Shown here piece after piece: positions 38,358 to 58,893 of a stretch of DNA of 64,000 bases. Position 1 is the stretch's first letter. Every line of letters begins with the position of its first letter. Both the position numbers and the translations under genes were made by a program. The stretch comes from an uncultured Bacilli bacterium (GTDB taxonomy: Bacteria > Bacillota_I > Bacilli_A > RF39 > UBA660): NCBI GenBank assembly GCA_944358855.1, contig CALVSC010000001.1:2385-66384 (forward strand), written 5' to 3'. Under the pieces are notes generated by a model, which saw only the letters and a program-made list of their open reading frames with translations, ran no database searches and had not been told where the DNA came from.

Positions 38358-39176
38358 TCAGTTTTTGTGCTGGCTTAGTTCAATATTTAGTTGTTTTAAA
38401 AGAGCGGTTTGTCTTGTCGTTCTACTTTGTTCTTTTGGTGATATAGTGTCTTGGTAATTTGCATATTGTATTTCTACTTCTGCTGTTTGCCATTGTTGTT
38501 CTTGTAGTGTTTTAGCAAGTTCTTCTTCTATTTTGGATTTTGGTTTTCTATTACTTCCATTTCTTAGCTCTGTTTGTAATCCTAATCTTTCAAATTCTAT
38601 ATCTAATAATTCGCTACAAGTTGATAAATATGTCTGATAAGCGTTCATTCTAGTCAATTTGTTTTCAAAACTAGAGATAGAAATAATTCCACTTTGGTAG
38701 TTTAGTTTGTCTTGAAAAGCTATTTTCTTAGTTCTCTTTTGTTCTTCTTCCACTAAAAGATGAGCCCAGGTTAATTTTAATTTTTCTATTCTTGCTATTA
38801 AATTAGGGTCTTCTAGAGATTCCATATAAGAAATTTCTTCGGGCATTACTTCTATTAATATTAATCTTAATATATCGTATATATCATATACTGTTTCATC
38901 TTCAATTATGTATGATTGCACTTCGTCCATTAATTCATAGAGTATTTCAGAAACTGTAAAGTCTTCTGCAGAGGGATTTTTTTTGTTATCTTTATTGAAT
39001 ACGGAAGTGCTTTTTAAATAATTTTTGGCATGCTTAATTGTTTTAGATAAAACTTCTTCTTGATCATCTGGTGTTAGAAATTGAAAGTTTTCACTTAATA
39101 GTTCTAACTCTTCTCCTTCGTATTCTCTATCTTCTATTAAAATGTTTATGGCAGAAATTATTTCGTCTTTTAACAT
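38358..39176 (-). CDS. member B of a tandem paralogous family (unknown function)
   Basis: Shares the C-terminal module W..EVxIQYANYQ...IS..E with five other genes in the window. Confidence 0.5.
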   Translation of the reverse strand: MLKDEIISAINILIEDREYEGEELELLSENFQFLTPDDQEEVLSKTIKHAKNYLKSTSVFNKDNKKNPSAEDFTVSEILYELMDEVQSYIIEDETVYDIYDILRLILIEVMPEEISYMESLEDPNLIARIEKLKLTWAHLLVEEEQKRTKKIAFQDKLNYQSGIISISSFENKLTRMNAYQTYLSTCSELLDIEFERLGLQTELRNGSNRKPKSKIEEELAKTLQEQQWQTAEVEIQYANYQDTISPKEQSRTTRQTALLKQLNIELSQHKN

Positions 39177-40987: not shown

Positions 40988-42478
40988 TTATTTATGAATA
41001 TTAGAATTAGATTGTTTGGAAAAATGAAGCTTTGATAATAATTCACTAGTTATTTCTTCTGGGGATTTCTCTTTGGTATATTGAGTGATGGTCTTTAAAG
41101 CGTAATTACAATGACTAGAAAGAAAATGTCTATTATCTCTTTCTTGATTACTACCCTCTTCTATTTTTTTTCTTTGGTTTAGAATTGTTAGCGATTCTTC
41201 TTTATCTGTACTAGGCATTAATAAAACTACATTATGAAATTGTTGTATTAATTGTTGTATTTCTAAAAACATAATAGGATTTTCGTAGATAGAATGTCCT
41301 GCTCCAAAATCTATAATGGTGGGTTCTGATAAATTGGTTAATACGGATCCAGTTAAGAAAAATTCAAATTCTTTATTGTTTTTAAAGTTTTTGCGTTGTT
41401 GATATAGATATGATAGCTGTTTTCTATTGTCTAATGAGATTTTTGGCATATCTAATGTACTGGCTAGATGGTTAGAAATTGTTGATTTACCTGCACCCAG
41501 GGGGCCAATTAAAATAATGGAGTTATTTAGAACATCGTCACTTACTTGTTTATTTACAAGGCTTTCCATTTTTCTAATTGTTGTATATATGTCATAAATA
41601 TCTAAGCCAATTTCAATAAAAGATCTATTATCTTGTAGGCATCGCATTTTTTCTGTTTCTATTAATTCTTGTGGAATATTTTTTATGAACTTAGAATAAG
41701 TGTCAAATAAGAATAAAATTTTTTCTTCTTTTGATTTTTGAAATATTTCTAGTTTTTCTTGTAGTATAGAAGAAAACTCTGGATAATATTTTAGATATTG
41801 CGTTAATGCAGAACTTATAAATTGTTCTTTTGATGGATCTAACATTTGAAGGATAATAAACTTATCAAATATAGTAATTAGGTCTTCTTGACTGAAAGGA
41901 ATAAAGTTTGGATCTTTGGTACAAGCAAGTAAATTTACTTTTTCTAATAGGTTGGGATGTAAGAATAATAGTCTTTCAAATGTTTCATGAGTAAGGGGTC
42001 CTTTTTCTCTATTTGCTTGTCTTACTTCTGTTTCTATTAAATCCGTATCATCTAATGGGATATTTGCTGGTCTGTTAGGATAATGGTAGATTTTAATGAG
42101 TCCTTCTTCTTGGAGTTGTTTTATTTTTTGATAGACGTTTTCTATTTCTTCTTCTCTGATAATGTCTACATCTTTTTTTGAAACCACTTCAACAAAGCCA
42201 GTTTTAATATCTTGAAAACTATCACTACTTAAAGTATAAATAGATGCACTATTATTAAACATTGTTTCTAACCCTCTAGGTATTCGTTCTACTAGTTGCC
42301 ATGGTTGGTCAGAGGTTGTTTTAAATAATGAATAAGTCATATCATCTCCTGCCCTACCTGCAAAGATAATAGCTAGTTCTTTATGAGGTGTTGCGTAAAC
42401 ATAATTTCCATGGGTTGATTTATGAGGTTCTAGTTTCTTGATTCCACTTTTTGCACTTCCATGATATAAATATTCCAT
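40988..42478 (-). CDS. fusion protein: N-terminal Arr/KptA-like ADP-ribosyltransferase-fold domain + C-terminal P-loop small-molecule-kinase-like domain
   Basis: N-terminus LYHGSAKSGIKKL...HGNYVYATPHKELAIIFAG...SASIYTLSSDSFQDI matches the H/aromatic/acidic core of rifampin ADP-ribosyltransferase (Arr) and the Tpt1/KptA NAD-binding lobe. The C-terminus has Walker A IILIGPLGAGKSTIS and hhhhD IIDFGAG. Confidence 0.5.
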   Translation of the reverse strand: MEYLYHGSAKSGIKKLEPHKSTHGNYVYATPHKELAIIFAGRAGDDMTYSLFKTTSDQPWQLVERIPRGLETMFNNSASIYTLSSDSFQDIKTGFVEVVSKKDVDIIREEEIENVYQKIKQLQEEGLIKIYHYPNRPANIPLDDTDLIETEVRQANREKGPLTHETFERLLFLHPNLLEKVNLLACTKDPNFIPFSQEDLITIFDKFIILQMLDPSKEQFISSALTQYLKYYPEFSSILQEKLEIFQKSKEEKILFLFDTYSKFIKNIPQELIETEKMRCLQDNRSFIEIGLDIYDIYTTIRKMESLVNKQVSDDVLNNSIILIGPLGAGKSTISNHLASTLDMPKISLDNRKQLSYLYQQRKNFKNNKEFEFFLTGSVLTNLSEPTIIDFGAGHSIYENPIMFLEIQQLIQQFHNVVLLMPSTDKEESLTILNQRKKIEEGSNQERDNRHFLSSHCNYALKTITQYTKEKSPEEITSELLSKLHFSKQSNSNIHK

Positions 42479-42639
42479 TTTATCACCTACTTTATTACTT
42501 TTATGAGAATTATGTTTTTTAATATATTTACATTTTATTTGCTTGAACCTATTTCTATAAATACTATATCATAAGTAAATACTTTGGCAAATATTTTTAG
42601 TGTGCTTTTGCTTTTATACTAAAAAATTGGTAAAATAAG

Positions 42640-43626
42640 ATGAGAATTATTCTTGGAGAAATACTTTGGTGGTGTTGTAAAATGGATAATTTAGTTTCTA
42701 AAATCAATTTTTTTAGTAATAATGCATTATTTGAGGAAATAAAGGATAGCAATTCTGGAGCTATATTAAAAAAAGTTACAGATAATAATCAAACTTATTT
42801 TTTGAAGATTGTTTTTAAAGAAAATGTAGATGTTGTTAAAATAAAAAAAATAATAGAAATTTATGAAAAATATAATATCAATACTATTAAACTACTTGAT
42901 TATGGATATATCGATAATCAAGTATATTTAATTTATAATTTTATAGATGGCAAAGCTTTAAATACAGTCTATGATCAATATAGTCCAAATGATTATTATC
43001 ATATGGGTTTTAATATTGGTGATGGTTATCGAAAAATTAATTCAACACTTGAGTTTAACAATTATTTTATTAATGATTACAATATAAATGACTTAGTAAA
43101 TTACTATATAAAGTCTTTTCAACAATTGTATAATGGAAAACTATCTTATATAAAAGATATAATTTCAGAAGAAAAAATGAATGATATAATAAAAAGAATG
43201 AAAAGCCTTATTTCTTCCTTTGATAATGAAAAAAAAGTGTATATTCACGCAGATATGCACCCTAAAAATATAATGATTGATTGTAATCATAACTTATATG
43301 TAATTGATATTGAGTCTTTTTGCATTGATTATTTTATCATGAATGTAAGATGGTCTATCGCTGCTGCTTTTAAAAATAAAGAAAATAATGAATTCTTTAA
43401 AGGTTTTGTTAATGGTTATTATAATAATAATATTCCATTAAATTTTAATAAACAATTAATACTTATTTTAATATTTAATTTTATGGAACATACTATTGAA
43501 TTCAGTAAAACGAAAGATAAAGATTTTATTGTCAATTACGTTTCCCGGATAAATAAGATATTTAATAGTATCGATTTGTTTCAGGATGATAATATTTTAG
43601 AGAAGACAACTATATTTGATTCTTAA
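42640..43626 (+). CDS. aminoglycoside-phosphotransferase (APH)/choline-kinase-fold kinase
   Basis: Catalytic loop IHADMHPKNIMID and Mg-binding YVIDIE, plus an N-lobe K (YFLKIVFK). The true start may be the ATG at 42682. Confidence 0.65.
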   Translation: MRIILGEILWWCCKMDNLVSKINFFSNNALFEEIKDSNSGAILKKVTDNNQTYFLKIVFKENVDVVKIKKIIEIYEKYNINTIKLLDYGYIDNQVYLIYNFIDGKALNTVYDQYSPNDYYHMGFNIGDGYRKINSTLEFNNYFINDYNINDLVNYYIKSFQQLYNGKLSYIKDIISEEKMNDIIKRMKSLISSFDNEKKVYIHADMHPKNIMIDCNHNLYVIDIESFCIDYFIMNVRWSIAAAFKNKENNEFFKGFVNGYYNNNIPLNFNKQLILILIFNFMEHTIEFSKTKDKDFIVNYVSRINKIFNSIDLFQDDNILEKTTIFDS

Positions 43627-43645
43627 TTTTTATCTCATAAGGGTT

Positions 43646-44728
43646 TTATTGAATGTTTTTTAAAAATTTGTTTATACTATGATACCATTTAAACATACCT
43701 AATTTTCTTTCTGCATATTTTTGAAATTCTGCTTCGCTATAATTTTTATTAATACTTTTCCATCTTTTTAAAACTCTTTTATAACAAGTTTCTATACTTG
43801 TTCTCATTACTATGATTTGTCCTTTTAATATAGAATAATCCTTTATATTTCTATATTGTGCGGAATCAATAATTATGATTTTATTACTATTTTTAAAATA
43901 TTCTAAAACTTTTAGATAGAATTCATCAAAATTAGTAAACAAATAATCCTTTGGTGTATCTTTAAATATTTCTCGTAATTGAACACACTCTTTATTATTG
44001 GATGGTTTATTACTAAAAACAATATCCGTATCTATTACAATATAATTATCATCATTTATATACTTTTTACTATAATATGATTTTCCACTACCAGATTCAC
44101 CTGTAATATTTATAATTTTGTCTTTAGTTATAGACTTTATATATGGTTTTTTATCTATAAATCTGCTTATCAATAAATCAGACTTTATTTCATATAAATA
44201 GGTTTCAATTTCTTCTACTAGATTATTTTCTTCTTTTTTATTGCTTTTGTTTCCATGCAATATAAAATCATTCCATTCTTCTAATGCTGTATCAATATTT
44301 TCTTTTTTTATTTTATCTTTTAGTATTTGATATGCTGTTTTTTGATAGTTCATAATACTTACTACAGCTAATGTTTTATAATATGATTTTTCTGGTATTT
44401 TCGAAATTTTGTAATAATGAAGAGCTGATTCGTCATTTACTTTTTTGGGATTACTTATCATTATTTTATTTGTTCTATATATTGTTGTGGCACCCTCTAA
44501 TTTAATATTTTCAGCATCTTCAGGTATTGTAACATCATAAATTGTATCTCCTCGATGTAACCATCTTACTATGCAGTCCTCACTACAATAATTAAAACCT
44601 CCGAAGTCTTTAGCTGTTGTAGCGTTGGGCTTCCAATTGGTTGCGATATTTACTTCATTAATTTTATATTGATAATTTGCTTTGGCTCCTGAAGTAGTGC
44701 CATACAAAACTTTTACATATTTTTTCAT
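43646..44728 (-). CDS. paralogous fusion: degenerate Arr-like ART-fold domain (His lost) + P-loop kinase-like domain
   Basis: N-terminus VLYGTTSGAKAN...TIYDVTIPEDAEN parallels Arr FYHGTKANL...YIYIVEPTGPFEDD but lacks the His. C-terminus has Walker A ITGESGSGKS and IIIDSAQ. Confidence 0.4.
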   Translation of the reverse strand: MKKYVKVLYGTTSGAKANYQYKINEVNIATNWKPNATTAKDFGGFNYCSEDCIVRWLHRGDTIYDVTIPEDAENIKLEGATTIYRTNKIMISNPKKVNDESALHYYKISKIPEKSYYKTLAVVSIMNYQKTAYQILKDKIKKENIDTALEEWNDFILHGNKSNKKEENNLVEEIETYLYEIKSDLLISRFIDKKPYIKSITKDKIINITGESGSGKSYYSKKYINDDNYIVIDTDIVFSNKPSNNKECVQLREIFKDTPKDYLFTNFDEFYLKVLEYFKNSNKIIIIDSAQYRNIKDYSILKGQIIVMRTSIETCYKRVLKRWKSINKNYSEAEFQKYAERKLGMFKWYHSINKFLKNIQ

Positions 44729-45755: not shown

Positions 45756-46631
45756 TTATTTTCTTGTGTATACTTTTCTACTTTCGTTTCTTTGAGCTAT
45801 GATTTGGTGTTTTCTGTTTTCTGCTTGGCCAATTTGTGTAATAGCATCTTGATTGGAAATTCTTCCTTCTGAAAGTAATAACCATGTTTGACTAGAGATT
45901 ACTTCTTGTTCTGCAAGTTGAACTCTATCATAGGCTTCTTGCCATCTTTCGTCTTGTCTTTGTTCGGTAGGAGAAACGTTTGTTCTATTTAACCTATTTT
46001 CTATTTCTTCTTTTTTTGTTCTTTCTTCTCTTAGTGCTCTTTTCGCAAAAACATAGCTTTTTCTTCTAGCTTCTGTTCTGATAATATCTTGTAGGTCATC
46101 ATCCGTTATTAGTCCTTGTGCATGTGCTTCTTTACTATTTGTAAGGGTTCTTTCTATTTGTTCTAAATCTTGTTCTGTTTTTACTTCGTTATGTATTCTA
46201 TCAAGTTTAATTTTTGAGTTTAATAAACTTATAAAACCAGGAGTTTGTTCTTGATGTTTATTACGTCCTTTTATAATTGTTTTTCTAATTAGTTTTCTTT
46301 CTTCTTCGATTACATCTAATTGTACTTTTCTAAGTAATGGTACTATTTTGGCATTTATATTATATTGTCTTACTCTTTTAATGACAGAGTTTAATGCTGT
46401 TAAAGTGGATGGTGTTACTAGTTGGATTCTTGTTTTTTGTTCTAGAGCTGATAAAACAGTACTTCTATTTGCTACATAATGATTGGTATATACTTCTAAG
46501 GCTGCTTTATATATAGCTTTTGTTTTTCCATCTAAGGTATCATAGCTATCGCTTATACTTATGATTTCTTCTGGTTGTAATTCTGTGATGTTATATAATT
46601 TTTTTATTTGTTCTAATAATTTGTCTTTCAT
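45756..46631 (-). CDS. member C of the tandem paralogous family
   Basis: C-terminal ...VQLAEQEVISSQTWLLLSEGRISNQDAITQIGQAE matches the family module. The N-terminal L..YNI..L.PEEI pattern is also shared. Confidence 0.5.
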   Translation of the reverse strand: MKDKLLEQIKKLYNITELQPEEIISISDSYDTLDGKTKAIYKAALEVYTNHYVANRSTVLSALEQKTRIQLVTPSTLTALNSVIKRVRQYNINAKIVPLLRKVQLDVIEEERKLIRKTIIKGRNKHQEQTPGFISLLNSKIKLDRIHNEVKTEQDLEQIERTLTNSKEAHAQGLITDDDLQDIIRTEARRKSYVFAKRALREERTKKEEIENRLNRTNVSPTEQRQDERWQEAYDRVQLAEQEVISSQTWLLLSEGRISNQDAITQIGQAENRKHQIIAQRNESRKVYTRK

Positions 46632-47548
46632 CTATATTCCCCCTCAACTTTGTGCTTGGTATATTCTATTGTTTTTTCATCTGTTGTTGTTTCTATTTTA
46701 AATTGATGTAATAAAGATTCCCCTATTAATTCTTGTGCATCATCATCACTTAACTCCCCTATTGCTACTTGATATTTAGCATATTGAATATTTACTTCTT
46801 CTTGTTGCCATGTAATCATACTTTCGTAAGACTTTAATTCTATTTGTTCTTCATCTGATAGTTTTATTCCTTGTAGTTCTTTTCTACCTTTTTTTAAATA
46901 TAAATCGTTTTGTTCCGATTGTAGATAAGTATAGTAGATAGATGCTGCGATATATTGTGAATAAAGGGTTACTTCTTTTTTCCTTTTTTCGTATTCTGCT
47001 GGTGATATTTTGCCATTATCAAATTCCTTTTCATTTATTGTGTCTTGCATATCAATAATCTCTGTTTGTCTTTGGAGATTTATTATAACCATTTCATATC
47101 CTATTTTATTATAGGCATATGCAAGAGCTAGTTTAACATATGGGTTTTCGGGATTTTGATTTTTTAATTCTTGTATCTTTTTTTGTTCTTCTCTTAGGGC
47201 ATATCTTACAACTCCTCGTAAATATGCAGTTAGAGATTCTACTTTGTATGTTTGACCTAAATAGTCATAGATATCATTTAAATTAAATACGATTTCTGGC
47301 GTGATTGGATTTACTTCAAATACATCTAAATTTGTTTCACTTTCTACATTAAATGGTGAATTAGTAGCAATATATCTATCTACATAATCTTTTAGTCTTT
47401 GTTCTAGATTTTTTCTTTCTTTTTTTGATGTTGAAAAAAATATAGTGCTTAGTTCATCAATTTCATCGTCTGTTATTGGATCTTTAGATAAGGCAATTGT
47501 AAATAAGTCGTATAGACTTTTCTTGGTTTTGTCCATATTATTTATCAT
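46628..47548 (-). CDS. member D of the tandem paralogous family
   Basis: C-terminal WQQEEVNIQYAKYQVAIGELSDDDAQELIGESLL. Its stop overlaps the next gene's start as ATGA. Confidence 0.5.
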   Translation of the reverse strand: MINNMDKTKKSLYDLFTIALSKDPITDDEIDELSTIFFSTSKKERKNLEQRLKDYVDRYIATNSPFNVESETNLDVFEVNPITPEIVFNLNDIYDYLGQTYKVESLTAYLRGVVRYALREEQKKIQELKNQNPENPYVKLALAYAYNKIGYEMVIINLQRQTEIIDMQDTINEKEFDNGKISPAEYEKRKKEVTLYSQYIAASIYYTYLQSEQNDLYLKKGRKELQGIKLSDEEQIELKSYESMITWQQEEVNIQYAKYQVAIGELSDDDAQELIGESLLHQFKIETTTDEKTIEYTKHKVEGEYR

Positions 47549-48520: not shown

Positions 48521-49444
48521 TCAAATATTGCGCTTTGGCAATTTTTGCTTTTTGGAGCCTTCATTGTGTTGAGAAGTTTCAATCATTGCTTGTTCTAGAA
48601 GAGATGCTCCAATTACTTCTCTTCTTTCTTCTTCTGGTAAGTTATGTGATAGAAATTGCCAGTTTGCATAGGTAATTGCAACTTCTTGTCTTAACCATTC
48701 TGCATGGAGTTTTAATTCACGTTCATGTAAGATACAATTAGGATTAATATTGGCACCAAGTAATTCATACTCATTTTGATTAGATAGATGGTAAAATGCA
48801 TAATTTAAATTGTAATCTGTAAATTCTACGATGGTATCCAAGTAGTCCATGTAGGCTTGTTCTTGTTTTAAATAGTCTAGATATTCTTGTTCTGATATAG
48901 CTTTGTGATCATACTGGAATCTTAAGTTGTGTTGTTTATAAATGGTATTATGTTGTTGTTCTGATACTTCTGCTTTCTTTTTATGGGTTTCTAACATTAG
49001 TTTTTTAAATGCTAATAGTCTTTGCAATGATTTGTTATTTGTAATCATTGGTTTTAGTTCTTTCATTTTAGCATTTAAAAAATTTAATTCTTCTTGATAT
49101 CCAATAATATATACACGATTCATTAGGCGTACAATATCATTTTCCGTTTCTTCTTGATCAGGATCTTCTATTACTGTTTTCATGATGGATTCTTGTTTTG
49201 CTAGTAATTGTTCCATGGTGGTGGTTGGTTCTATGTATTGTAATACATCTGTTGGAAGTATAGCAAATTGACTATTGGTTCTAATGTATGATTTCATAAA
49301 ACTTTTTAGTTTTTCTTCTAGTTCTGCTCTTGTATTTGGTGTTTGAGCTAAAAATGTATTGTTGATATCTATAACGGTCTCGGGAGGGATGGGTTCTTTG
49401 GTAAATAATCTTTGTAACATGTGATATAATTCTTGTTTTTTCAT
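48521..49444 (-). CDS. member F of the tandem paralogous family
   Basis: C-terminal WLRQEVAITYANWQFLSHNLPEEERREVIGASLL. N-terminus is similar to D. Confidence 0.5.
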   Translation of the reverse strand: MKKQELYHMLQRLFTKEPIPPETVIDINNTFLAQTPNTRAELEEKLKSFMKSYIRTNSQFAILPTDVLQYIEPTTTMEQLLAKQESIMKTVIEDPDQEETENDIVRLMNRVYIIGYQEELNFLNAKMKELKPMITNNKSLQRLLAFKKLMLETHKKKAEVSEQQHNTIYKQHNLRFQYDHKAISEQEYLDYLKQEQAYMDYLDTIVEFTDYNLNYAFYHLSNQNEYELLGANINPNCILHERELKLHAEWLRQEVAITYANWQFLSHNLPEEERREVIGASLLEQAMIETSQHNEGSKKQKLPKRNI

Positions 49445-51009: not shown

Positions 51010-51609
51010 CTATTTACCACTTGTTTTTAGGTTTTCTTTCATTAAATCCCCTACTATTTTTTCTAGTTTTTTATTTTCTTGTTCTAAATCATCTGTTACT
51101 TTGTATGGTTTTCCAAATCTAATTGTTAAGTTTTTACTTCTAAATTTGTAATCTCCTGTAATACCAAAGGGAACGATTGTAGCGTTTGTTTTTTTAGCCA
51201 TAGAGACAGCTCCAAATTTAAATGGTAATAAGAATTCTTTTGTTTTATTTCTAGTTCCTTCAGGGAATAGTCCTAAAGCAAAACCATTTTTTAATACTTT
51301 TAGAGCTTCTTCTGTTGCATGAGGATCTTTTTTACTTCTATCTACGGGAATACAGCCTACCATTTTGAAAAACCAAGCAAATTTGCCATCAAAATATTCT
51401 TTTTTTGCCATATAGTGTATTGGCCTTTTGGTAGAGATAATTGCTAGACATTGGTCATATAAATGTTTGTGGTTTCCAACAATTAAGATTGGGCCTGTTG
51501 TTGGAATGTTTTCTTTTCCAATGATTGTTGGATGATAATACCATTTAAATATAGGACCTAATATCGGTTTTAATATACGATATGGCAACATTTTATCTTT
51601 ATTTTTCAT
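51010..51609 (-). CDS. lysophospholipid (1-acyl-sn-glycerol-3-phosphate-type) acyltransferase
   Basis: HX4D motif VGNHKHLYDQ and the FPEGTRN block. Confidence 0.7.
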   Translation of the reverse strand: MKNKDKMLPYRILKPILGPIFKWYYHPTIIGKENIPTTGPILIVGNHKHLYDQCLAIISTKRPIHYMAKKEYFDGKFAWFFKMVGCIPVDRSKKDPHATEEALKVLKNGFALGLFPEGTRNKTKEFLLPFKFGAVSMAKKTNATIVPFGITGDYKFRSKNLTIRFGKPYKVTDDLEQENKKLEKIVGDLMKENLKTSGK

Positions 51610-53323
51610 CTTTTCTACTTTCTTCTTGTAGTTTTTTAAAGTCTACTTTACCTATTAGAGTTTTTGGTAAAGATTTTCTATATTCGAATTCTTTTGGTAT
51701 GGCATAACTTGCGAGATTTTTCTTACAGTGATCTTTTATACTTTTCTTTACGGTAATTGGACTATATCCATTTTTTAATACGATGTAGGCCTTTGGTACT
51801 TCAATTTTATAGGGGTGTGGTATACCGATTACAGTACATTTTAATACAGCTGGGTGTTCTTCAATAATTTGTTCTACATATGCTGGGTAGATATTGTATC
51901 CACTAGATATAATCATTCGTTTTAGTCTTTGTTTATAATAAATTACACCATCTTCATCCATCATACCAATATCACCAGTATGTAACCAGATAAGTCCATC
52001 TTTATGGATTTGTAACATTTCGTTTGTTTCTTTTTCATTATCTAAATATCCAAGCATTACAGTTGGACCATGAACACATATTTCTCCGTCTTCTCCATAT
52101 GGTACTTCTTCCTGGGTCCCAGGTTTTACAATTTTAATTAAGTTGCTAGGGAAAGGAATTCCGATACTTCCTTGTTTATCAGCATCTCCATAAGCAAGAC
52201 ATACAGCCGCAAGAGATTCTGTCATTCCATATCCTTGAGAAATAGAGATTTTAGCTCCGTGGTTAGCAAGATATACATTAATTCTTCTTTCTAGAGATGG
52301 TGATAGACTATCTCCTCCGGATATCATGTATTTTACCATACTTAAATCTAAGTGTTCGTTTTTGGTATTGATTAAGGCTTCATAAAGCGTTGGTACACCA
52401 AACATGATATTTGGCTTATACTTTTCAATTAGTTTATCAAACTTTTTAGCATTAAACTGTGGTATTAAAATTACTTCACATCCTAAATCTAGTGGAGCAT
52501 TAATAGATACTCCTAGTCCAAAACCATGAAAAACTGGCATAATAGCTAATACTCTTTCTCCAGTACCTAGTTTTGAAAAAATAACTTTTGCTTGTTCTGT
52601 TAAAGCGTTAAAGTTACCGTTTGTTAGTACAATTCCTTTTGGTGAACCAGTTGTTCCTCCACTATGTAAGATTACTGCTGGAGTATCTTTTGTAGTGTGA
52701 GCAACTTCTTTTCCTGGATAAGTTAATCCTTTTCTGATAAAGTCTTTCCAATATACATAGTCTTCACTTCTTTTTGGCTTTTTTACTTTGTACCCTTGTG
52801 TTACTTGATAGCCAAAAGCTAATAGGAAATTCATTGAATCACTAGCAGAAGTAACAATGGTCTTATAGACATCTGTATCCTTTATAATGTTTTTTACTTT
52901 TTCATAACATATATCAATCATTATTAACATAACACTATGAGTTGATGTTAGATAGTGTTTGATTTCTTCTTCTCCTGATAGAGGGTGAATCATATTCGCA
53001 ATGGCCCCTATTTTATTAACAGCATAAAAAGCAACTAATGCTTCTGGTGTATTTGGCATACAGATTGTTACTACATCACCTTTTCTTATTCCTTGACTTT
53101 GAAAAGCACGAGAAGCTTGTTCTATCTGATGGAGAAATGTCTTATAGTCAATTAATTTACCATAATAATTAAGGGCTGTTAGTTTTTCTCTTCCTTCACT
53201 ACATTTTACTAACATTTCATAAATAGAAATGTCTTCTACTTTTATTTTTCGATCTTCTTTTTTGTAATATTTTAACCAAGGTGCTTTAATTAATTTTTGT
53301 CTAATCAAATTAATTACGTTCAT
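51599..53323 (-). CDS. AMP-dependent acyl-CoA/acyl-ACP synthetase
   Basis: AMP-binding motifs LHSGGTTGSPKG, GYGMTE, TGD and the IISSGYNIYP region. Confidence 0.75.
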   Translation of the reverse strand: MNVINLIRQKLIKAPWLKYYKKEDRKIKVEDISIYEMLVKCSEGREKLTALNYYGKLIDYKTFLHQIEQASRAFQSQGIRKGDVVTICMPNTPEALVAFYAVNKIGAIANMIHPLSGEEEIKHYLTSTHSVMLIMIDICYEKVKNIIKDTDVYKTIVTSASDSMNFLLAFGYQVTQGYKVKKPKRSEDYVYWKDFIRKGLTYPGKEVAHTTKDTPAVILHSGGTTGSPKGIVLTNGNFNALTEQAKVIFSKLGTGERVLAIMPVFHGFGLGVSINAPLDLGCEVILIPQFNAKKFDKLIEKYKPNIMFGVPTLYEALINTKNEHLDLSMVKYMISGGDSLSPSLERRINVYLANHGAKISISQGYGMTESLAAVCLAYGDADKQGSIGIPFPSNLIKIVKPGTQEEVPYGEDGEICVHGPTVMLGYLDNEKETNEMLQIHKDGLIWLHTGDIGMMDEDGVIYYKQRLKRMIISSGYNIYPAYVEQIIEEHPAVLKCTVIGIPHPYKIEVPKAYIVLKNGYSPITVKKSIKDHCKKNLASYAIPKEFEYRKSLPKTLIGKVDFKKLQEESRKDEK

Positions 53324-53894
53324 AATAGTCCTCCAATTTTTTATTAATTTCTTTTTGAAATTTTTTATTTTCTTCTTCTAGATTATTTGTTATAGTTCTT
53401 GGTTTTAAAAATTCTATTTGTATACTTTTTCCAATAATACGATATTTTTCTGTGATAACTAAGGGTACGATTGGGGTTTTTGTTTCATAGGCCATCTTGA
53501 TTGCTCCCATTTTAAAAGGTAGTGTTTCTTTCCTTGTTTTTCTATTGATTGTCCCTTCTGGAAATATTCCTATTACCTTTTTTTCTTTTAATGTTTTTAT
53601 TGCACTTTCTAAGGCTTCATGGTCATGTATTTTTCTATTGACAGGTATTGCACCTGCTCCTATTAAAAATGGCTTTGTAATGCCTTTAAATAAGGAATCT
53701 TTGGCTAAAAAGTGTACTTGTCTTGGAGATAGTGCAATTAACATAATAGGATCTAACCATTTTGTGTGATTTCCTGCTAAAATATAGTTTCTATCCTTTG
53801 GTATATTTTCTATTCCTATTACCTTAGGATGAAATAATATTTTAAATAATATTGTCACTATAGGTTTTATTATTTTATAAAACGTCGTATCCAT
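53310..53894 (-). CDS. second PlsC-family acyltransferase
   Basis: AGNHTKWLDP (HX4D) and the FPEGTIN block. Confidence 0.7.
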   Translation of the reverse strand: MDTTFYKIIKPIVTILFKILFHPKVIGIENIPKDRNYILAGNHTKWLDPIMLIALSPRQVHFLAKDSLFKGITKPFLIGAGAIPVNRKIHDHEALESAIKTLKEKKVIGIFPEGTINRKTRKETLPFKMGAIKMAYETKTPIVPLVITEKYRIIGKSIQIEFLKPRTITNNLEEENKKFQKEINKKLEDYYERN

Positions 53895-53943: not shown

Positions 53944-54648
53944 TTATGATTTAATATATTCTACTAAAGCATTTCCCTCTTCGTTTAAAAGGTTATGTAG
54001 TTCTAGTTGATGTTTTACTTCTTTCGCTACTCCGTAGTTGCCATCTAGTAGTTTTATATTCGGAAATATTTTACTTATTTCTTCTTTTATTAAAGAATAA
54101 TGTGTACAACCTAAGACAATTGAGTCTATTTCTTTTTCTTTTACTTGTTCTTTTATATCTAATAAAATATCCTCTATTTCTTTCAAACTATGTCTTTCTA
54201 TGGCGTTTGCTAGAGTCGGACAAGATATTAGCGTGATTTCTTGATTATTTCTTTTATTGTCTCTTATTAATTCACTTGTTCTTTCTGAGTCGATTGTCGA
54301 TGGAGTTGCAAGTACTAGTGTATGTTTAGAATTATGATCACAAGCTACTTTTATCGCTGGTACCGTTCCTACAAATAGTGTATTGGGATATTCTTCTTTT
54401 AATTTTTTCATACATCTTGTAGTTGCAGTATTACATGCTAGTACAATTATTTTACAGTTTTTATCTATTAAAAATTCTACTATGTTTTTTACTATTTTAT
54501 ATATTTCCTGTGGTGTTTTTTCTCCATAAGGATTGTTTTTACTATCAGCATAGTATATGTAGTTTTCTTTGGGTAATAATTTTTTAATTTCTTCTAAAGT
54601 AGAGGTTCCACCTATACCAGAATCTAAAATACCTATTTTTTGATTCAT
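53944..54648 (-). CDS. murI: glutamate racemase (Asp/Glu racemase family)
   Basis: GILDSGIGG near the N-terminus and two catalytic Cys regions (VLACNTAT, LGCTHY). Confidence 0.75.
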   Translation of the reverse strand: MNQKIGILDSGIGGTSTLEEIKKLLPKENYIYYADSKNNPYGEKTPQEIYKIVKNIVEFLIDKNCKIIVLACNTATTRCMKKLKEEYPNTLFVGTVPAIKVACDHNSKHTLVLATPSTIDSERTSELIRDNKRNNQEITLISCPTLANAIERHSLKEIEDILLDIKEQVKEKEIDSIVLGCTHYSLIKEEISKIFPNIKLLDGNYGVAKEVKHQLELHNLLNEEGNALVEYIKS

Positions 54649-54693
54649 GTTTTCACTCCTTTCTATTATTATATCACAAATAAAAAAAGGTTT

Positions 54694-55206
54694 TCACCTT
54701 TTTACTCCATAGAATTTATAGTATGTATCTTTATCGTTTCTTTGATAATAGTCGATTGCTAAAGAAATATTTATGTTATTAGGAAAGCGAGTTAGTATTT
54801 GCTCTATTTCATTATTTTCTAGTTTATAATCTCTTATAAATGTTAAGAGATTTGCTCCTGGTGTTGTTAACATATGAGTAAGTATTTCTTCTCTTGTCAT
54901 AATGTGGTCTATTCTTAAAGTGTCTGTTGCACAGATATCGTAAAATCCATAGTATTCAAATGGATCGTTAAAAGTAACAACTTTTCCTAGTGCTGACACT
55001 CTAGCGACTTTAACTGGTTGTTGTATAGCTTCAAAATAGTGAAAAGCATCTTCTAGATGTAGTGTAAAGTGTATTCCTGTACCTTTCGTTCCAGCAGTTA
55101 GTTTTTTATCACTAGGGATTCGGTAAATTTCATTTTCTTTAAATGGTTGTCCATATAAGTTTGTCATGTCGGCATTAAATGCTTTAAATCCTTTTACTTG
55201 TTCCAT
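54694..55206 (-). CDS. hypothetical 170-aa protein
   Basis: No recognised motif. Co-directional with and immediately downstream of the CinA-C and ARH genes. Confidence 0.45.
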   Translation of the reverse strand: MEQVKGFKAFNADMTNLYGQPFKENEIYRIPSDKKLTAGTKGTGIHFTLHLEDAFHYFEAIQQPVKVARVSALGKVVTFNDPFEYYGFYDICATDTLRIDHIMTREEILTHMLTTPGANLLTFIRDYKLENNEIEQILTRFPNNINISLAIDYYQRNDKDTYYKFYGVKR

Positions 55207-55225
55207 GTGTTGCCACCAATCTTTA

Positions 55226-55699
55226 CTATTTTATTATGTCTTCTAGGGTTTTAATAATGACATTTATTACTTCTTGTTTTGCTTCTTCTCGAGGAGAAAA
55301 TGATACTTTTATTGTGTTGTTGGTGTAGGTTGTGTTGTTTTTATTATAAATACTAATAAACACTACATTATCTTCTCCTGTTAGGTTTTTAGGATCAATT
55401 TTATTTAGTTTTCCGGTTATTCCTACTCCATAATCGCTTTCTGTAAAATCTGATATTGTTTTTGCCATAGCTTGAGCAGTTTCTATACTATATACAGTAT
55501 ATTTATCAATTATTTTTTTATCTACTCCCATTTTTATTTTGTATTCATTAGAATAGGTAACGGCACTAAATTTTATTACTTTACTAGAACCATCACAGTT
55601 GGTAATGGCGTTAGCTACTCCTCCTCCAGTACAAGATTCCATAGTAGATAGGGTTTCTTGTCTTTCTTTTAGTTTTTTTATTATGTTATTAAAGTTCAC
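55226..55699 (-). CDS. CinA C-terminal-domain protein (PncC-like NMN deamidase / ADP-ribose-processing family)
   Basis: TMESCTGG signature. 157-aa stand-alone CinA_C. Confidence 0.7.
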   Translation of the reverse strand: MNFNNIIKKLKERQETLSTMESCTGGGVANAITNCDGSSKVIKFSAVTYSNEYKIKMGVDKKIIDKYTVYSIETAQAMAKTISDFTESDYGVGITGKLNKIDPKNLTGEDNVVFISIYNKNNTTYTNNTIKVSFSPREEAKQEVINVIIKTLEDIIK

Positions 55700-56543
55700 G
55701 TTTTAGCCTCTTTTCATCTTTATATACTTGTTTTAATAAGTTTTTTCCGTTATCGTCTAAACGGTTTAGTGCTTGTTGTTTTAACTCTTCGGGGATAGGA
55801 TAAATTGTCTCAGCAATTGCTCCTGTAATACTAGCAATTGTATCACTATCTCCTCCTATCGATATGGCTTTTCTAATGCAGTCTTCAAAATCGTTTCCTT
55901 GGAAGAATGCATATATTGCAATTGGTACAGAGTTTTTAGCACGAGATGTAAATTTATAATTGTGTCTTAGTTCTTCTAAGTTGTAATTTAGTGGATAGTA
56001 GTGTTCTTTTATATAGTTTTCTACTTCTTCTTTGGAATGCCCTGTTCTTAGTAAATAAATTGTTGTAGCAACGGCTTCGGCACTTTTAATGGCTTCTGGA
56101 TGGTTATGAGTAGGAATTGTTGCGAGATATGATTCTTCTTTTATTTCTTCTAAATCATCAAATAAATAAGCAACTGGACTTATCCTCATGGCGGCACCAT
56201 TGCCATAACTATCTCCTTTTTTCTTTCCTTCTATCCAAAGAAGAGAACCTCTTCCAAAACGTGGACGTCCAAAAATATCATTTCCTTTGGCTATTTCTCT
56301 TAGACCATAATCTTTTAAATAGGTTTCATAGTCTCTGTTTCCATTTATTATGGCATCTATCATTGCTAGAGTCCAACAAGTGTCGTCTGTTGGGATGGAG
56401 CAGTCTTGAAATAATGGCGTTTTTTTATCCATTATATCCATTCTTTCTTCATATGGACTTGGTGCATGGTAATTTAGAAAATATTTCACTTCTCTTATTT
56501 CATATGTAGATCCAACCATATCTCCTATAATAGCTCCTAGCAT
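55689..56543 (-). CDS. ADP-ribosylglycohydrolase (DraG/ARH family)
   Basis: N-terminal MLGAIIGDMVGSTYE and C-terminal GGDSDTIASITGAIAE di-metal motifs. Confidence 0.8.
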   Translation of the reverse strand: MLGAIIGDMVGSTYEIREVKYFLNYHAPSPYEERMDIMDKKTPLFQDCSIPTDDTCWTLAMIDAIINGNRDYETYLKDYGLREIAKGNDIFGRPRFGRGSLLWIEGKKKGDSYGNGAAMRISPVAYLFDDLEEIKEESYLATIPTHNHPEAIKSAEAVATTIYLLRTGHSKEEVENYIKEHYYPLNYNLEELRHNYKFTSRAKNSVPIAIYAFFQGNDFEDCIRKAISIGGDSDTIASITGAIAETIYPIPEELKQQALNRLDDNGKNLLKQVYKDEKRLKREL

Positions 56544-56558
56544 TATAAATCACTCCTT

Positions 56559-57593
56559 TTAATCGTTATGTCTATTTAGAAGAACTTGTTTACGATATGA
56601 TTTTTGTTCTTCTGATAAGCGTTCTTTTGTTATTTGAGTAGGATATTGTGTTAGTATTGATGAATCAAGGTGAGCTCTTTGATTTTTTAATATTCTAAGT
56701 ACTTCGTTGCCTAGAGAGATTGCTTGTTCAAGTCCTTCTCCAATAGATGGTTGGTGAAGATTTCTTAAACGAGAAGTTAGCATAAATAAATCATCTTCAT
56801 AATCTTCAATTGCGGAAGCTAAGACACAAGAGCTTTCGATATCTCGATATAAATCTTCCTTTTTCATTTCTTTTAGTTCTTCTAATCTTTGATTAGGATT
56901 TAATTCTTCTGGTAATATCATTATTGGTATATTTAACGTTGTTAAAGTGATAGAAGTGGATTGTGTTTCTAAGACAGGTTGATGTGTTACTAATGGTTGC
57001 TTTATTTGATATCTAGAAGAGTTTGTTTTATATTCTATTTCTCTATGGTAAGTTGGTACTATCGTAGTGTCTTCAAAATAATAAACATAGTTTTCTAGTT
57101 GAGATGGTAAACTGTGTTGTTGCGTGGTAAAATTGGCTTTTTTATCTAGTGTTATTTCATCGATATCTAATTTTGCCATTTTTTCTACTAATGCACTTAT
57201 ATTATCTAATGAGTCTTCATTTTCTTTTAAATATTCATAAAATCTATGAAAACTTGTATCTTTTTTACTACCATCATTTTGATTATAATTATCGATTAAA
57301 AATCCTTTTATTATTGTTACTTTACCAATATGAGTAGGATGTTTTTTTTCGTAACTTTCTTTTATTGTTCTAAATAAGTCTTTATGTTTTTCATAAAACT
57401 CTTTTATGTCTTGAGGTATAAAATGTTTTTTTGCTATTGTATCTTTTTCTTTTGATAATAATTCTATTTGTAATGGTATATCTTTTTTAGGGTATTTTTG
57501 TATTAAATTTTTTAATTCTTTACTAAATTCATCGAAGGTATCTAAATAATTAATTAATATTTTTAATTTGTCTGTTGTAATTGTTTGCCTCAT
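56559..57593 (-). CDS. hypothetical protein
   Basis: 344-aa ORF with no recognised motif. Confidence 0.45.
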   Translation of the reverse strand: MRQTITTDKLKILINYLDTFDEFSKELKNLIQKYPKKDIPLQIELLSKEKDTIAKKHFIPQDIKEFYEKHKDLFRTIKESYEKKHPTHIGKVTIIKGFLIDNYNQNDGSKKDTSFHRFYEYLKENEDSLDNISALVEKMAKLDIDEITLDKKANFTTQQHSLPSQLENYVYYFEDTTIVPTYHREIEYKTNSSRYQIKQPLVTHQPVLETQSTSITLTTLNIPIMILPEELNPNQRLEELKEMKKEDLYRDIESSCVLASAIEDYEDDLFMLTSRLRNLHQPSIGEGLEQAISLGNEVLRILKNQRAHLDSSILTQYPTQITKERLSEEQKSYRKQVLLNRHND

Positions 57594-57602
57594 CTTTACC
57601 TC

Positions 57603-58454
57603 CTATCCTATTATTTGGTTATATAATTCTTTTTTATATACTTTTACTGGTTGTGGTGTTTTAGTTTTTTGAATAATGGGAATTCCTCTTTCAAAGTTAT
57701 CGCTCCATTCTTCTCTTGGTACATTTCCTTGTACTTCTAAACTGTTATTGGTAAGTCCTAGTAAAAATAATATGTCCATTAGAGTGTCGTTAGCAGTCCA
57801 AATACTTCCGTCTTGTCTAATTCCTATATCAAAAAGTTTTATTCCTTCATCAATGCCTTTTACTTCTTGTATCATGGATATTATATCGGCTGCATGCTCT
57901 TTGGCTTTTTTAGCTTTGATTAAGCATGTTTGGTAAAGACTTGAAGGAAATAGGAAATCTTCATTTGGCATTTCTTCTGTAAAATCATTAGCCCAAAAAC
58001 ATATATCGCGATAAACAGATCTTACATTTCTTGCTGTTAATGGAGTTTTATTTAGTCTTGGGAAAACATGAAGACTGCGATCTCGACAATCTTCTTCATC
58101 TAAGATATAGAGTTCGTTTTTCTTATCCTCTTCTATTATTTTCTCAATAAATGGAAAAATGTCTTGTTGAATGATGTTTATGTCTTTTTCATTTATTGGC
58201 ATATTGGTCATTTTTCTTATCAGTTCTATTAGTTTATTATTTCTTACAATATCAAGAAGAACAGATGCATCTTTTTCTTGCTCATAGAGGATAATGGCAA
58301 AAGTAAACATTTCTTCTGGGAATTGATGAAAACAAGTTGTTAAAAGCTTTTCTTCTCCCTGGGTATAAATACAGTTTGCGTTATTTAACCATATAGATAA
58401 AAGTTGTGTTTCTGTTACTTTTTCAAGTGGTAATATTTTTTTCATAGTTTTCAC
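57603..58454 (-). CDS. hypothetical protein
   Basis: 283-aa ORF with no recognised motif. Confidence 0.45.
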   Translation of the reverse strand: MKTMKKILPLEKVTETQLLSIWLNNANCIYTQGEEKLLTTCFHQFPEEMFTFAIILYEQEKDASVLLDIVRNNKLIELIRKMTNMPINEKDINIIQQDIFPFIEKIIEEDKKNELYILDEEDCRDRSLHVFPRLNKTPLTARNVRSVYRDICFWANDFTEEMPNEDFLFPSSLYQTCLIKAKKAKEHAADIISMIQEVKGIDEGIKLFDIGIRQDGSIWTANDTLMDILFLLGLTNNSLEVQGNVPREEWSDNFERGIPIIQKTKTPQPVKVYKKELYNQIIG

Positions 58455-58509
58455 TTCCGGTACTTTTATTGTAACGTATTTTTTATAAATGTAAAGAAAA
58501 AAGAGAGAA

Positions 58510-58893
58510 TTATCTCTCTTCTGTAATTACGATGATATGTTTTCCTACTTTACCAAGTATTGGAATGTTCTTATTACTTCCTTTGGTTTTTTCTCCTGTT
58601 GCGGTATCAGGTACATCTACACTTGTTCCAGTATCTGGTGTTGCAACATTTTCTGTTTCAGAAGTAGAAGCAGGTGTTTGTTGTTCTTCTGTTGTTGACT
58701 CTTCTGTTTGGTTATCTTCTCCGGCTGTTGGCTCTAATACTTCTACAGCTGGTTTATTTTCTTTTTGTTCTGTTTGAGAATTATCTACTTTTGTCTTGTC
58801 TGGTTCTGTAAATTTATTTACAACTGATATTAATAATAAACCTCCAGCAATGATTAATACTAATATAACGATATATCTAATATAGTTTCTCAT
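58510..58893 (-). CDS. membrane-anchored protein with T/E/P-rich low-complexity linker
   Basis: N-terminal TM helix, acidic Thr/Glu/Pro-rich region, and a short hydrophobic C-terminus. Confidence 0.4.
   Translation of the reverse strand: MRNYIRYIVILVLIIAGGLLLISVVNKFTEPDKTKVDNSQTEQKENKPAVEVLEPTAGEDNQTEESTTEEQQTPASTSETENVATPDTGTSVDVPDTATGEKTKGSNKNIPILGKVGKHIIVITEER

Follow-up and report, generated by a model that had tools for sequence, protein, structure and literature searches.

What brings an ADP-ribosylglycohydrolase (ARH), a stand-alone CinA C-terminal domain (CinA-C) and a protein of 170 residues together in consecutive genes? The question is raised by a stretch of 64,000 nucleotides from an uncultured Bacilli bacterium (GenBank assembly GCA_944358855.1, contig CALVSC010000001.1, positions 2,385 to 66,384; the whole stretch is called the window below, and positions are counted from its first letter), in which the three genes lie at 54694-56543. 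A sequence-only reading of this DNA had proposed a system for reversible ADP-ribosylation, with ARH as the eraser, the writer encoded about 12 kb away and the 170-residue protein as target or antitoxin. Our analysis points elsewhere. With a probability of about 55%, the locus represents a pared-down version of a conserved cluster for nicotinamide adenine dinucleotide (NAD) homeostasis. The most fitting reading of ARH and CinA-C, a domain of the PncC type, is that they form a translationally coupled pair for the recycling of NAD by-products, with substrates and regulation deduced from sequence.

ARH, CinA-C and the NAD cluster of relatives

An open reading frame (ORF) check of the window confirmed all three ORFs at their coordinates, each on the minus strand, and we take them to be real genes because all have many homologues. 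The ARH (55689-56543, minus strand, 284 residues) belongs to the ARH/DraG family, matching PF03747 with an E-value of 9e-38 and 131 bits (cutoff 26.2), with residues 1-244 covering profile positions 3-275 of 287. Its metal-site motifs, T52-D53-D54 and G230-G231-D232-S-D234-T235, are intact, invariant in 30 homologues and aligned with those of Lmo0067 and MJ1187. A vicinal Asp pair and a GGDxDT motif supply the catalytic di-metal-site residues in ARH1, ARH3 and DraG. The best solved relatives are Lmo0067 (8za7), MJ1187, ARH3, Tri1 and DraG, with Tri1 among the weaker matches. The family is very large, as 7985 of 8000 scored candidates reached an E-value of 1e-20 or lower.

The CinA-C gene (55226-55699, minus strand, 157 residues, GTG start) encodes a predicted PncC-type amidohydrolase of nicotinamide mononucleotide (NMN). 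It matches PF02464 (E 1.6e-27, 96.5 bits, cutoff 23.5) and the NCBIfam model TIGR00199, PncC_domain (82 bits, cutoff 68.9), so that both domain calls of the sequence-only reading are correct. Alignment to TtCinA and AtCinA places the catalytic dyad at Ser22/Lys54 and also finds E21-S22-C23-T24-G25-G26, Y49 and T95-G96. In AtCinA, mutation of S31, K63, Y58 or T105-G106 abolishes or lowers NMN deamidase activity (PMC5384747). From its GTG start, the gene shares 11 nucleotides with the end of ARH, an overlap already described from the sequence, and the two genes overlap in 17 of 18 related loci as well.

Gene order in the relatives was established by mapping reference proteins, and the identities of NadD, NadR and NrtR were checked with NCBIfam and Pfam. 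In every relative with the ARH-CinA pair, the pair sits within an NAD salvage cluster, with nadD, pncA/B, nadE or prs/pnuC/nadR upstream and nrtR and nadK downstream. The sequence-only reading had itself named linkage of ARH to housekeeping functions in relatives as evidence against its scheme, and this linkage is what we found.

Several versions of the cluster can be told apart. Loci L007-L010 read nadD-ARH-cinA-nrtR with a variable nadK, and with pncA, pncB and nadE upstream (nadR-pnuC in L008). L093, whose ARH is 68% identical to that of the window, reads ARH-CinA-NrtR-NadK-DUF7666, where DUF7666 is the family of the 170-residue protein, while L092 (DUF7666 69% identical) holds NadK-DUF7666-MurI. 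On a 1.42-Mb contig, L094-96 (ARH 62%) have the order PncA-PncB-NadE-272aa-ARH-CinA-NrtR-DUF7666-UvdE-MurI-PlsC-FadD-PlsC-abhydrolase. L001-4 and L087-88 (61%) continue from Prs-NadD-PnuC-NadR-128aa-rSAM (radical S-adenosylmethionine protein) through ARH-CinA-NrtR-NadK-DUF7666-UvdE-MurI and onward, and L099 is also of the ARH-CinA-NrtR type with NAD genes upstream. From these strings we reconstruct the ancestral order in uncultured gut Bacilli/Mycoplasmatota as (pncA-pncB-nadE or prs-pnuC-nadR)-nadD-ARH-pncC-nrtR-nadK-DUF7666-(uvdE)-murI.

In the relatives, CinA and the 170-residue gene are separated by nrtR, in some of them also by nadK. Under this reconstruction the three-gene adjacency of the window is derived: losses of nrtR, of nadK, of the NAD genes upstream and of the operator would have made ARH, PncC and DUF7666 neighbours. 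We read it as a collapsed NAD cluster because the downstream flank and an upstream marker gene, ORF283, are shared with relatives and the NAD genes are gone. The flank consists of murI (glutamate racemase; 53944-54648, minus strand; TIGR00067, 185 bits, above cutoff), followed by plsC-fadD-plsC-abhydrolase in an order common to relatives. As for ORF283 (57603-58454, minus strand), it has no Pfam or NCBIfam match, and a homologue stands directly upstream of ARH in L094-96 (272 residues, E 1e-20; L094:8954-9772) and another upstream of the NAD cluster in L134 (L134:651-1598, E 8e-10). These matches make ORF283 a member of an uncharacterised family that, in three lineages or more, adjoins the NAD cluster. 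The nearest relatives, L093 and L092, bracket the deletion.

Since the relatives carry the pair in an NAD cluster, a role in recycling NAD by-products can be proposed. PncC recycles the NMN arising from non-redox NAD consumption and commonly occurs as a fusion with an ADP-ribose pyrophosphatase (PMC3680494). In the window, PncC would deamidate NMN, which NAD-dependent ligase and other NAD-consuming enzymes leave behind, to nicotinate mononucleotide (NaMN), which would re-enter NAD synthesis via NadD and NadE. ARH would set ADP-ribose free from its conjugates, O-acetyl-ADP-ribose for example, a step that would salvage the other half of the consumed NAD and, in the relatives, would yield the inducer of NrtR. 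The pairing parallels the common fusion of PncC to a COG1058 ADP-ribose pyrophosphatase domain. The earlier idea that both enzymes act on NAD-derived products holds, with putative substrates.

Several observations weigh against this proposal. The pairing is narrow: an ARH alignment scan with one genome per GTDB species gave 80 loci, and CinA stands behind ARH only in the closest clade, L007-L010 (four GTDB species, 49-58% identity), which makes 4 of the 80 closest GTDB ARH loci. Besides ARH-CinA no other NAD gene was found in the 64-kb window, nrtR and nadK included, and the NAD-recycling role assigned to the window is carried over from relatives by orthology. The substrate of the ARH is presumed, and its role as a hydrolase is taken from family membership. 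In CinA-C the xAGP loop (A108-G109-P110 in AtCinA) is not kept; the window protein has T95-G96-KLNKID-P, a 3-residue insertion compared with the TGVAG-P of TtCinA, and a loop of the KLNKIDP type is also found in relative L130. Because of this replacement, the specificity of PncC could differ. Lastly, the NrtR operator described in the next section is a prediction of this analysis itself.

The closest of the 80 loci belong to metagenome-assembled genomes of uncultured Bacilli from the guts of animals and humans. A number of close ARH homologues are longer, at about 380-403 residues (L012, L016, L075; P0068, P0104, P0117, P0118, P0121, P0127), with an extra C-terminal region of about 100 residues that has no annotated domain. 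Distant ARH homologues lie beside an NrtR-like gene or near prs in L050 and L060 (Bacteroidota) and L038, the adjacency being direct in the Prevotella locus L060. A linkage of ARH to NrtR would thus seem to recur beyond the Bacilli.

Transcription unit and candidate operator

The three genes had been described as a unit. Genes and coordinates stood, but the boundaries did not, as the sequence suggests a transcription unit of five genes on the minus strand, from 58454 to 54694, that includes two upstream ORFs. We predict one transcript because the gaps are short, terminator-like and promoter-like signals lie at 58522-58468, and a hairpin with a U7 tract lies 3' of the 170-residue gene. ORF283, the first gene, is followed after 9 nucleotides by ORF344 (56559-57593, minus strand), which ends 15 nucleotides before the ARH start, and the 170-residue gene begins 19 nucleotides past the CinA-C stop (20 in the sequence-only reading). 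ARH, PncC, DUF7666 and the two upstream ORFs would then probably share one messenger.

The likely 5' boundary (58468-58522, minus strand) combines the terminator hairpin of the preceding gene at 58499-58522 (-16.7 kcal/mol, z -4.07, a stability reached by none of 200 shuffles) and a promoter-like TTTACA-16-TACAAT at 58495-58468. At the likely 3' boundary (54660-54700, minus strand) a modest hairpin (-8.9 kcal/mol, z -2.6) and the U7 tract lie over the stop codon of the 170-residue gene, together with an extended -10 promoter-like site for murI at 54697-54668. ORF344 is lineage-specific, with no family match; it had no homologue in any fetched locus and was present only in contigs of the same species. 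No paralogy was found between ORF283 or ORF344 and other genes of the window.

Upstream of the first gene of the relatives' clusters we found a palindrome, TGTTATTAA-N7-TTAATAACA, with 0-2 mismatches (3 mismatches at prs in L001/L087). It lies upstream of pncA in L008, L009 and L094-96, of nadD in L007 and L009, and of prs in L001 and L087, with further sites in L010, L099 and L134. The sites mostly come in tandem pairs about 55 bp apart, the spacer often holds a -10 box, and they overlap a TTGACA-17-TATAAT promoter. The palindrome fits the 21-bp, GT-N7-AC style of NrtR sites and is a candidate operator for this repressor. ADP-ribose is the effector of NrtR, whose linkage with draG is known in Streptomyces (PMC2330246). 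In the window, a search with the 25-bp pattern gave only two matches, with 2-3 mismatches and inside ORFs, where 0.6 were expected by chance. A first guess at the operator, TTATTAA-N7-TTAATAA, was dropped as too AT-rich to inform, and perfect palindromes upstream of pncA were rejected, being terminators of the preceding genes.

DUF7666: genomic contexts and predicted fold

The 170-residue gene (54694-55206, minus strand) is present and follows CinA-C as the sequence-only reading had it, but it is not without a family, as its product matches DUF7666 (PF24703) above the gathering score. This family counts at least 500 matches in a word-indexed search and at least 1545 clusters at 50% identity. 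Its members are nearly all stand-alone proteins of 150-190 residues, with invariant K8, N16, Y18, Y28, G44, H46, E52, D53, D81, R105, F123, L129, E133 and Y153.

We examined the contexts of 98 loci, which form 78 clusters (lineages) at 85% identity. The upstream gene encodes NadK in 14 lineages, CinA in 4, NrtR in 2, a radical-SAM protein in 9, a signal peptidase in 6 and something else in 38, so that DUF7666 lies behind NAD genes in 20 of the 78. Downstream we found UvrA (17), UvdE (2), MurI (4), PlsC (6), other genes (35) or the contig end (14); DUF7666 stands directly ahead of uvrA or uvdE in 19 of the 64 lineages with a visible downstream gene, and it overlaps uvrA in 22 of 22 loci. DUF7666 thus stands repeatedly beside NAD genes, and also beside two repair genes for ultraviolet (UV) damage, uvrA and uvdE, that are not homologous to each other.

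Its relation to ARH is looser. The two occur together in 5 of the 78 lineages. Of the 12 NAD-context clusters that show the gene before CinA, only 5 have ARH, the loci with a uvrA context have none, and the ARH-CinA clusters of L007-L010 have no DUF7666 within 10 kb. By its distribution, DUF7666 is not a dedicated or conserved partner of ARH, and neither its target nor its antitoxin, because it is a large, independently distributed family found mostly without ARH.

In another Bacilli lineage a conserved cluster encodes a 246-residue protein, a radical-SAM/SPASM-like protein (273 residues), DUF7666, UvrA and a 129-residue protein (L115-L117, L126, L131, L143-144, L150, L152, L159-160, L171). 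The gap between the radical-SAM and DUF7666 genes is 1-5 nucleotides, and DUF7666 overlaps uvrA.

An AlphaFold2 model of the 170-residue protein, built from a 63-sequence alignment, reached a predicted local distance difference test (pLDDT) of 92.1 and a predicted template modelling score (pTM) of 0.86. It has a beta-rich N-domain (residues 1-104, 54895-55206; pLDDT 89.9 when modelled alone) and a C-domain forming a five-helix bundle (residues 105-170). A Foldseek search of the full-length model against the PDB placed Arr, the rifampin ADP-ribosyltransferase, first (2hw2, E 9e-3, probability 0.99), with Tpt1 and diphtheria toxin lower. For the N-domain, all PDB matches with a template modelling (TM) score of at least 0.40 belong to the ADP-ribosyltransferase (ART) superfamily, and all others fall below 0.27. 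The scores are 0.57-0.58 for Arr, 0.54 for PARP13, 0.46-0.49 for five Tpt1 entries and 0.45 for cholera toxin A1; PARP12, PltA, PltC and BC2332, which SCOP classes in the ADP-ribosylation superfamily, were also matched. Across both searches the probability for Arr is 0.87-0.99. An ART-like fold is therefore predicted for the N-domain.

By strand order and spacing, K8, H46 and D81 would occupy the three classical ART positions. Their spacing is 38 + 35 residues, against 30 + 35 for H19/Y49/D84 of Arr. An ungapped stretch of 37 residues from H46 can be aligned with Arr Y49 to P85 (H46-F-T..L-E..A...N-D81-P and Y49-I-T..L-D..A...D-D84-P), with apparently shared x-T, L-[DE], A and D-P. Given the predicted fold and the contexts, DUF7666 is most likely a protein that binds or uses NAD or ADP-ribose, recruited beside NAD genes or uvrA/uvdE.

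This part of our reading also has evidence on the other side. The ART-like call comes with weak Foldseek E-values of 0.009-4. Pfam at E-values up to 10 finds only DUF7666 and no ART family, a search of the PDB with the DUF7666 profile (hmmsearch) finds only uS11 (E 0.02), which we take as spurious, and hhalign of DUF7666 against Arr-2 gives a probability of 0.2%. Furthermore, K8-H46-D81 is non-canonical with respect to the H-Y-[EDQ] or R-S-E triad.

A stronger form of the hypothesis makes DUF7666 an active minimal ART, a writer whose marks ARH erases and which would place them on damaged DNA, on DNA ends or on the excision-repair machinery. PncC, NadD, NadE, NadK and NrtR would then replenish or sense the NAD consumed, and the translational coupling to uvrA/uvdE would be explained. 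The structural matches, which are ART-only, speak for it, as do the invariant K8, H46 and D81 with their Arr-like spacing, the placement behind NAD genes and before uvrA/uvdE, and the co-occurrence of ARH and DUF7666 in one cluster in five lineages. Nucleotide excision repair is also known to remove DNA ADP-ribosylation (PMC7003065). However, the patchy occurrence of ARH, absent from the uvrA-context loci and accompanied by no nearby DUF7666 in L007-L010, does not suit a writer-eraser couple; the triad is non-canonical, the fold-search E-values are weak and no link appears at the profile level. Fusions of the viral proteins described below to repeats would fit a binding module equally well. 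We therefore hold this version to be rather unlikely. In its widest form, DUF7666 would be an unrecognised family of Arr-sized minimal ARTs with a K-H-D site, placed between NAD homeostasis and UV/excision repair, which would ADP-ribosylate, for instance, damaged DNA, DNA ends or UvrA, with ARH as eraser; we put this forward tentatively and with considerable doubt. The writer/eraser scheme fails as originally stated and survives in this altered shape, with the 170-residue protein as candidate writer.

Among viruses, BFVD contains the DUF7666 fold in proteins of phages and giant viruses, joined there to pentapeptide, ankyrin or DUF4116 repeats, as well as phage proteins annotated as RIIB that resemble DUF7666 structurally only (both within probability 1.0 and E 1e-4 to 1e-2). 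T4 RIIB itself was rejected as a DUF7666 protein: it has no DUF7666 match in Pfam, which gives only a weak N-terminal helix-turn-helix, and hhalign was insignificant.

The scheme first proposed relied on a different writer. An Arr-like ART-kinase encoded about 12 kb away would modify a target, ARH would reverse the modification, CinA-C would process the product, and the 170-residue protein would be target or antitoxin in the style of DarTG or Tre1/Tri1. The ORFs concerned are ORF496 (40988-42478) and ORF360 (43646-44728). ORF496 starts with MEYLYHGS...YVYAT, which recalls the H-G-[ST] and Y-x-[ST] strands of ARTs, and ends in a P-loop kinase of the shikimate-kinase-like type; ORF360 has an N-domain without a family and a C-terminal P-loop. 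ARH enzymes do act as immunity proteins, as Tri1 illustrates. Neither ORF, however, matches Arr (PF12120) or another ART family in Pfam at E-values up to 10, ORF496 having a sub-threshold DUF6886 match only, and BLASTP against Arr-2 was insignificant (E 10).

We also considered an N-domain of the DUF7666 or Arr type in these two ORFs. The DUF7666 model run with filters off and hhalign were both insignificant, the latter catching only a motif, GGFNYCSEDCI, counted as 13 residues, at a probability of 0.4%, and this candidate was rejected. No homologue of either ORF was found in any of the 176 fetched loci, which leaves the supposed writer without conserved linkage; the conserved partners of ARH are CinA, NrtR and NadD, not an ART. 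As the 170-residue family occurs mostly without ARH, and PADLOC returned no match, the target or antitoxin role falls too. Synteny largely refutes this model, and we regard it as highly improbable. Between the two ORFs, on the opposite strand, lies an APH-family phosphotransferase gene (42640-43626); the genes of the interval 40988-44728 have the look of a small cluster that might modify small molecules.

A defence or phage origin of the locus was likewise rejected. PADLOC assigns none of the genes to a defence model, PHROGs gives only generic ARH, CinA and DUF7666 families, and the context is chromosomal, with no features of mobile elements or defence islands.

Finally, the adjacency might carry no functional meaning, the gene order being inherited and trimmed by deletions in a small gene-dense genome, with DUF7666 as a non-enzymatic accessory of excision repair that binds DNA or protein and has no link to NAD. 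The window between 45 and 63 kb is indeed a single co-directional, tightly packed gene string, the DUF7666-NAD linkage in related clades could be inherited synteny, and the upstream gene is unrelated in 38 of the 78 lineages. The C-terminal helical bundle and the viral repeat fusions also suggest a binding module. On the other hand, the ARH-CinA overlap is kept while the flanks vary, and the adjacency of CinA, NrtR or NadK to DUF7666 outlasts several rearrangements, with CinA abutting DUF7666 in four lineages. The ART-like predicted fold would, moreover, give a direct biochemical link to NAD. We consider this explanation unlikely.

Neighbouring genes, known systems and significance

The rest of the window is ordinary chromosome of the spore-forming Bacilli type, at about 29% GC, with alaS, mgsA, xseA, mutS, a Mur ligase gene (murC-like), gerA, murI and plsC. 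Two PlsC-type acyltransferase paralogues (51010-51609 and 53310-53894, 43% identical) flank an AMP-dependent ligase gene, an arrangement kept in relatives together with the abhydrolase and DUF1003. Distant paralogues of about 270-310 residues are encoded at 38358-39176, 46628-47548 and 48521-49444 (22-28% identity, E 5e-12 to 4e-7), in connection with a run of family-less ORFs at 45.7-49.4 kb.

Among known systems, the NrtR-controlled NAD operons (Rodionov et al. 2008, PMC2330246) come close: in the relatives ARH and PncC lie in one NAD gene string behind a palindrome with outer GT...AC, and ARH (draG)-nrtR linkage has been reported before, as in nrtR-draG of Streptomyces. The copy in the window differs in having no nrtR, nadK, operator or biosynthetic genes. 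The two-domain CinA proteins (PMC3680494, PMC4246079) likewise join an ADP-ribose-processing enzyme to an NMN deamidase, covering both halves of NAD, and the Ser/Lys dyad is kept. Here, however, the partner is a separate gene for an ARH-fold glycohydrolase, not a fused COG1058 domain, and xAGP is replaced by KLNKIDP. In the literature we found no description of an ARH translationally coupled to a stand-alone PncC, and searches on DUF7666, Lmo0067 and CinA plus ARH gave nothing relevant.

For DUF7666, Arr and the minimal H-Y-[EDQ] ARTs (Tpt1/KptA, BC2332) provide the only meaningful structural matches of the N-domain, with similar size and a helical part after the beta core. DUF7666 departs from them in having no sequence or profile similarity, in its putative K-H-D instead of H-Y-D, and in its context, which is NAD metabolism or excision repair and not antibiotic resistance or RNA repair. 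As in DarT-DarG, DarT-NADAR, Tre1-Tri1 and DraT-DraG, the window would have an ADP-ribosyl hydrolase in one operon with an ART-fold protein, DUF7666 being a possible one, and excision repair is tied to DNA ADP-ribosylation (PMC7003065). In contrast to these systems, ARH and DUF7666 are not a conserved adjacent pair, the conserved partner of ARH is PncC, and mobile or defence features were not found. The ARG-centred conflict systems with Nudix/WYL regulators (Aravind lab 2022, PMC9503650) share an ARH that has no canonical coupled ART and stands beside an ADP-ribose-sensing NrtR-like Nudix-HTH (helix-turn-helix) protein. The conflict systems, which come from Actinobacteria, Planctomycetes and Proteobacteria, include phosphatases, chaperones and restriction-type nucleases, whereas the partners of ARH here are core genes of NAD biosynthesis.

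As for what the locus means, ARH-PncC may be a natural, genetically separable counterpart of the COG1058-PncC fusion. With it, a predicted NAD operon under NrtR control, in gut Bacilli that are abundant yet uncultured, includes an ADP-ribosyl hydrolase, and de-ADP-ribosylation may thus supply NAD recycling as well as the ADP-ribose signal. The DUF7666 lead matters more, since more than 1500 sequence clusters with no assigned function gain the testable hypothesis of an NAD-using ART fold. Two independent links in the genomes support it, to NAD metabolism on one side and to the non-homologous uvrA/uvdE on the other. If true, the ART reading of DUF7666 would tie ADP-ribosylation to excision repair in bacteria in a further way, and the DUF7666-like proteins of phages and giant viruses, those annotated as RIIB included, would imply NAD-dependent chemistry there too.

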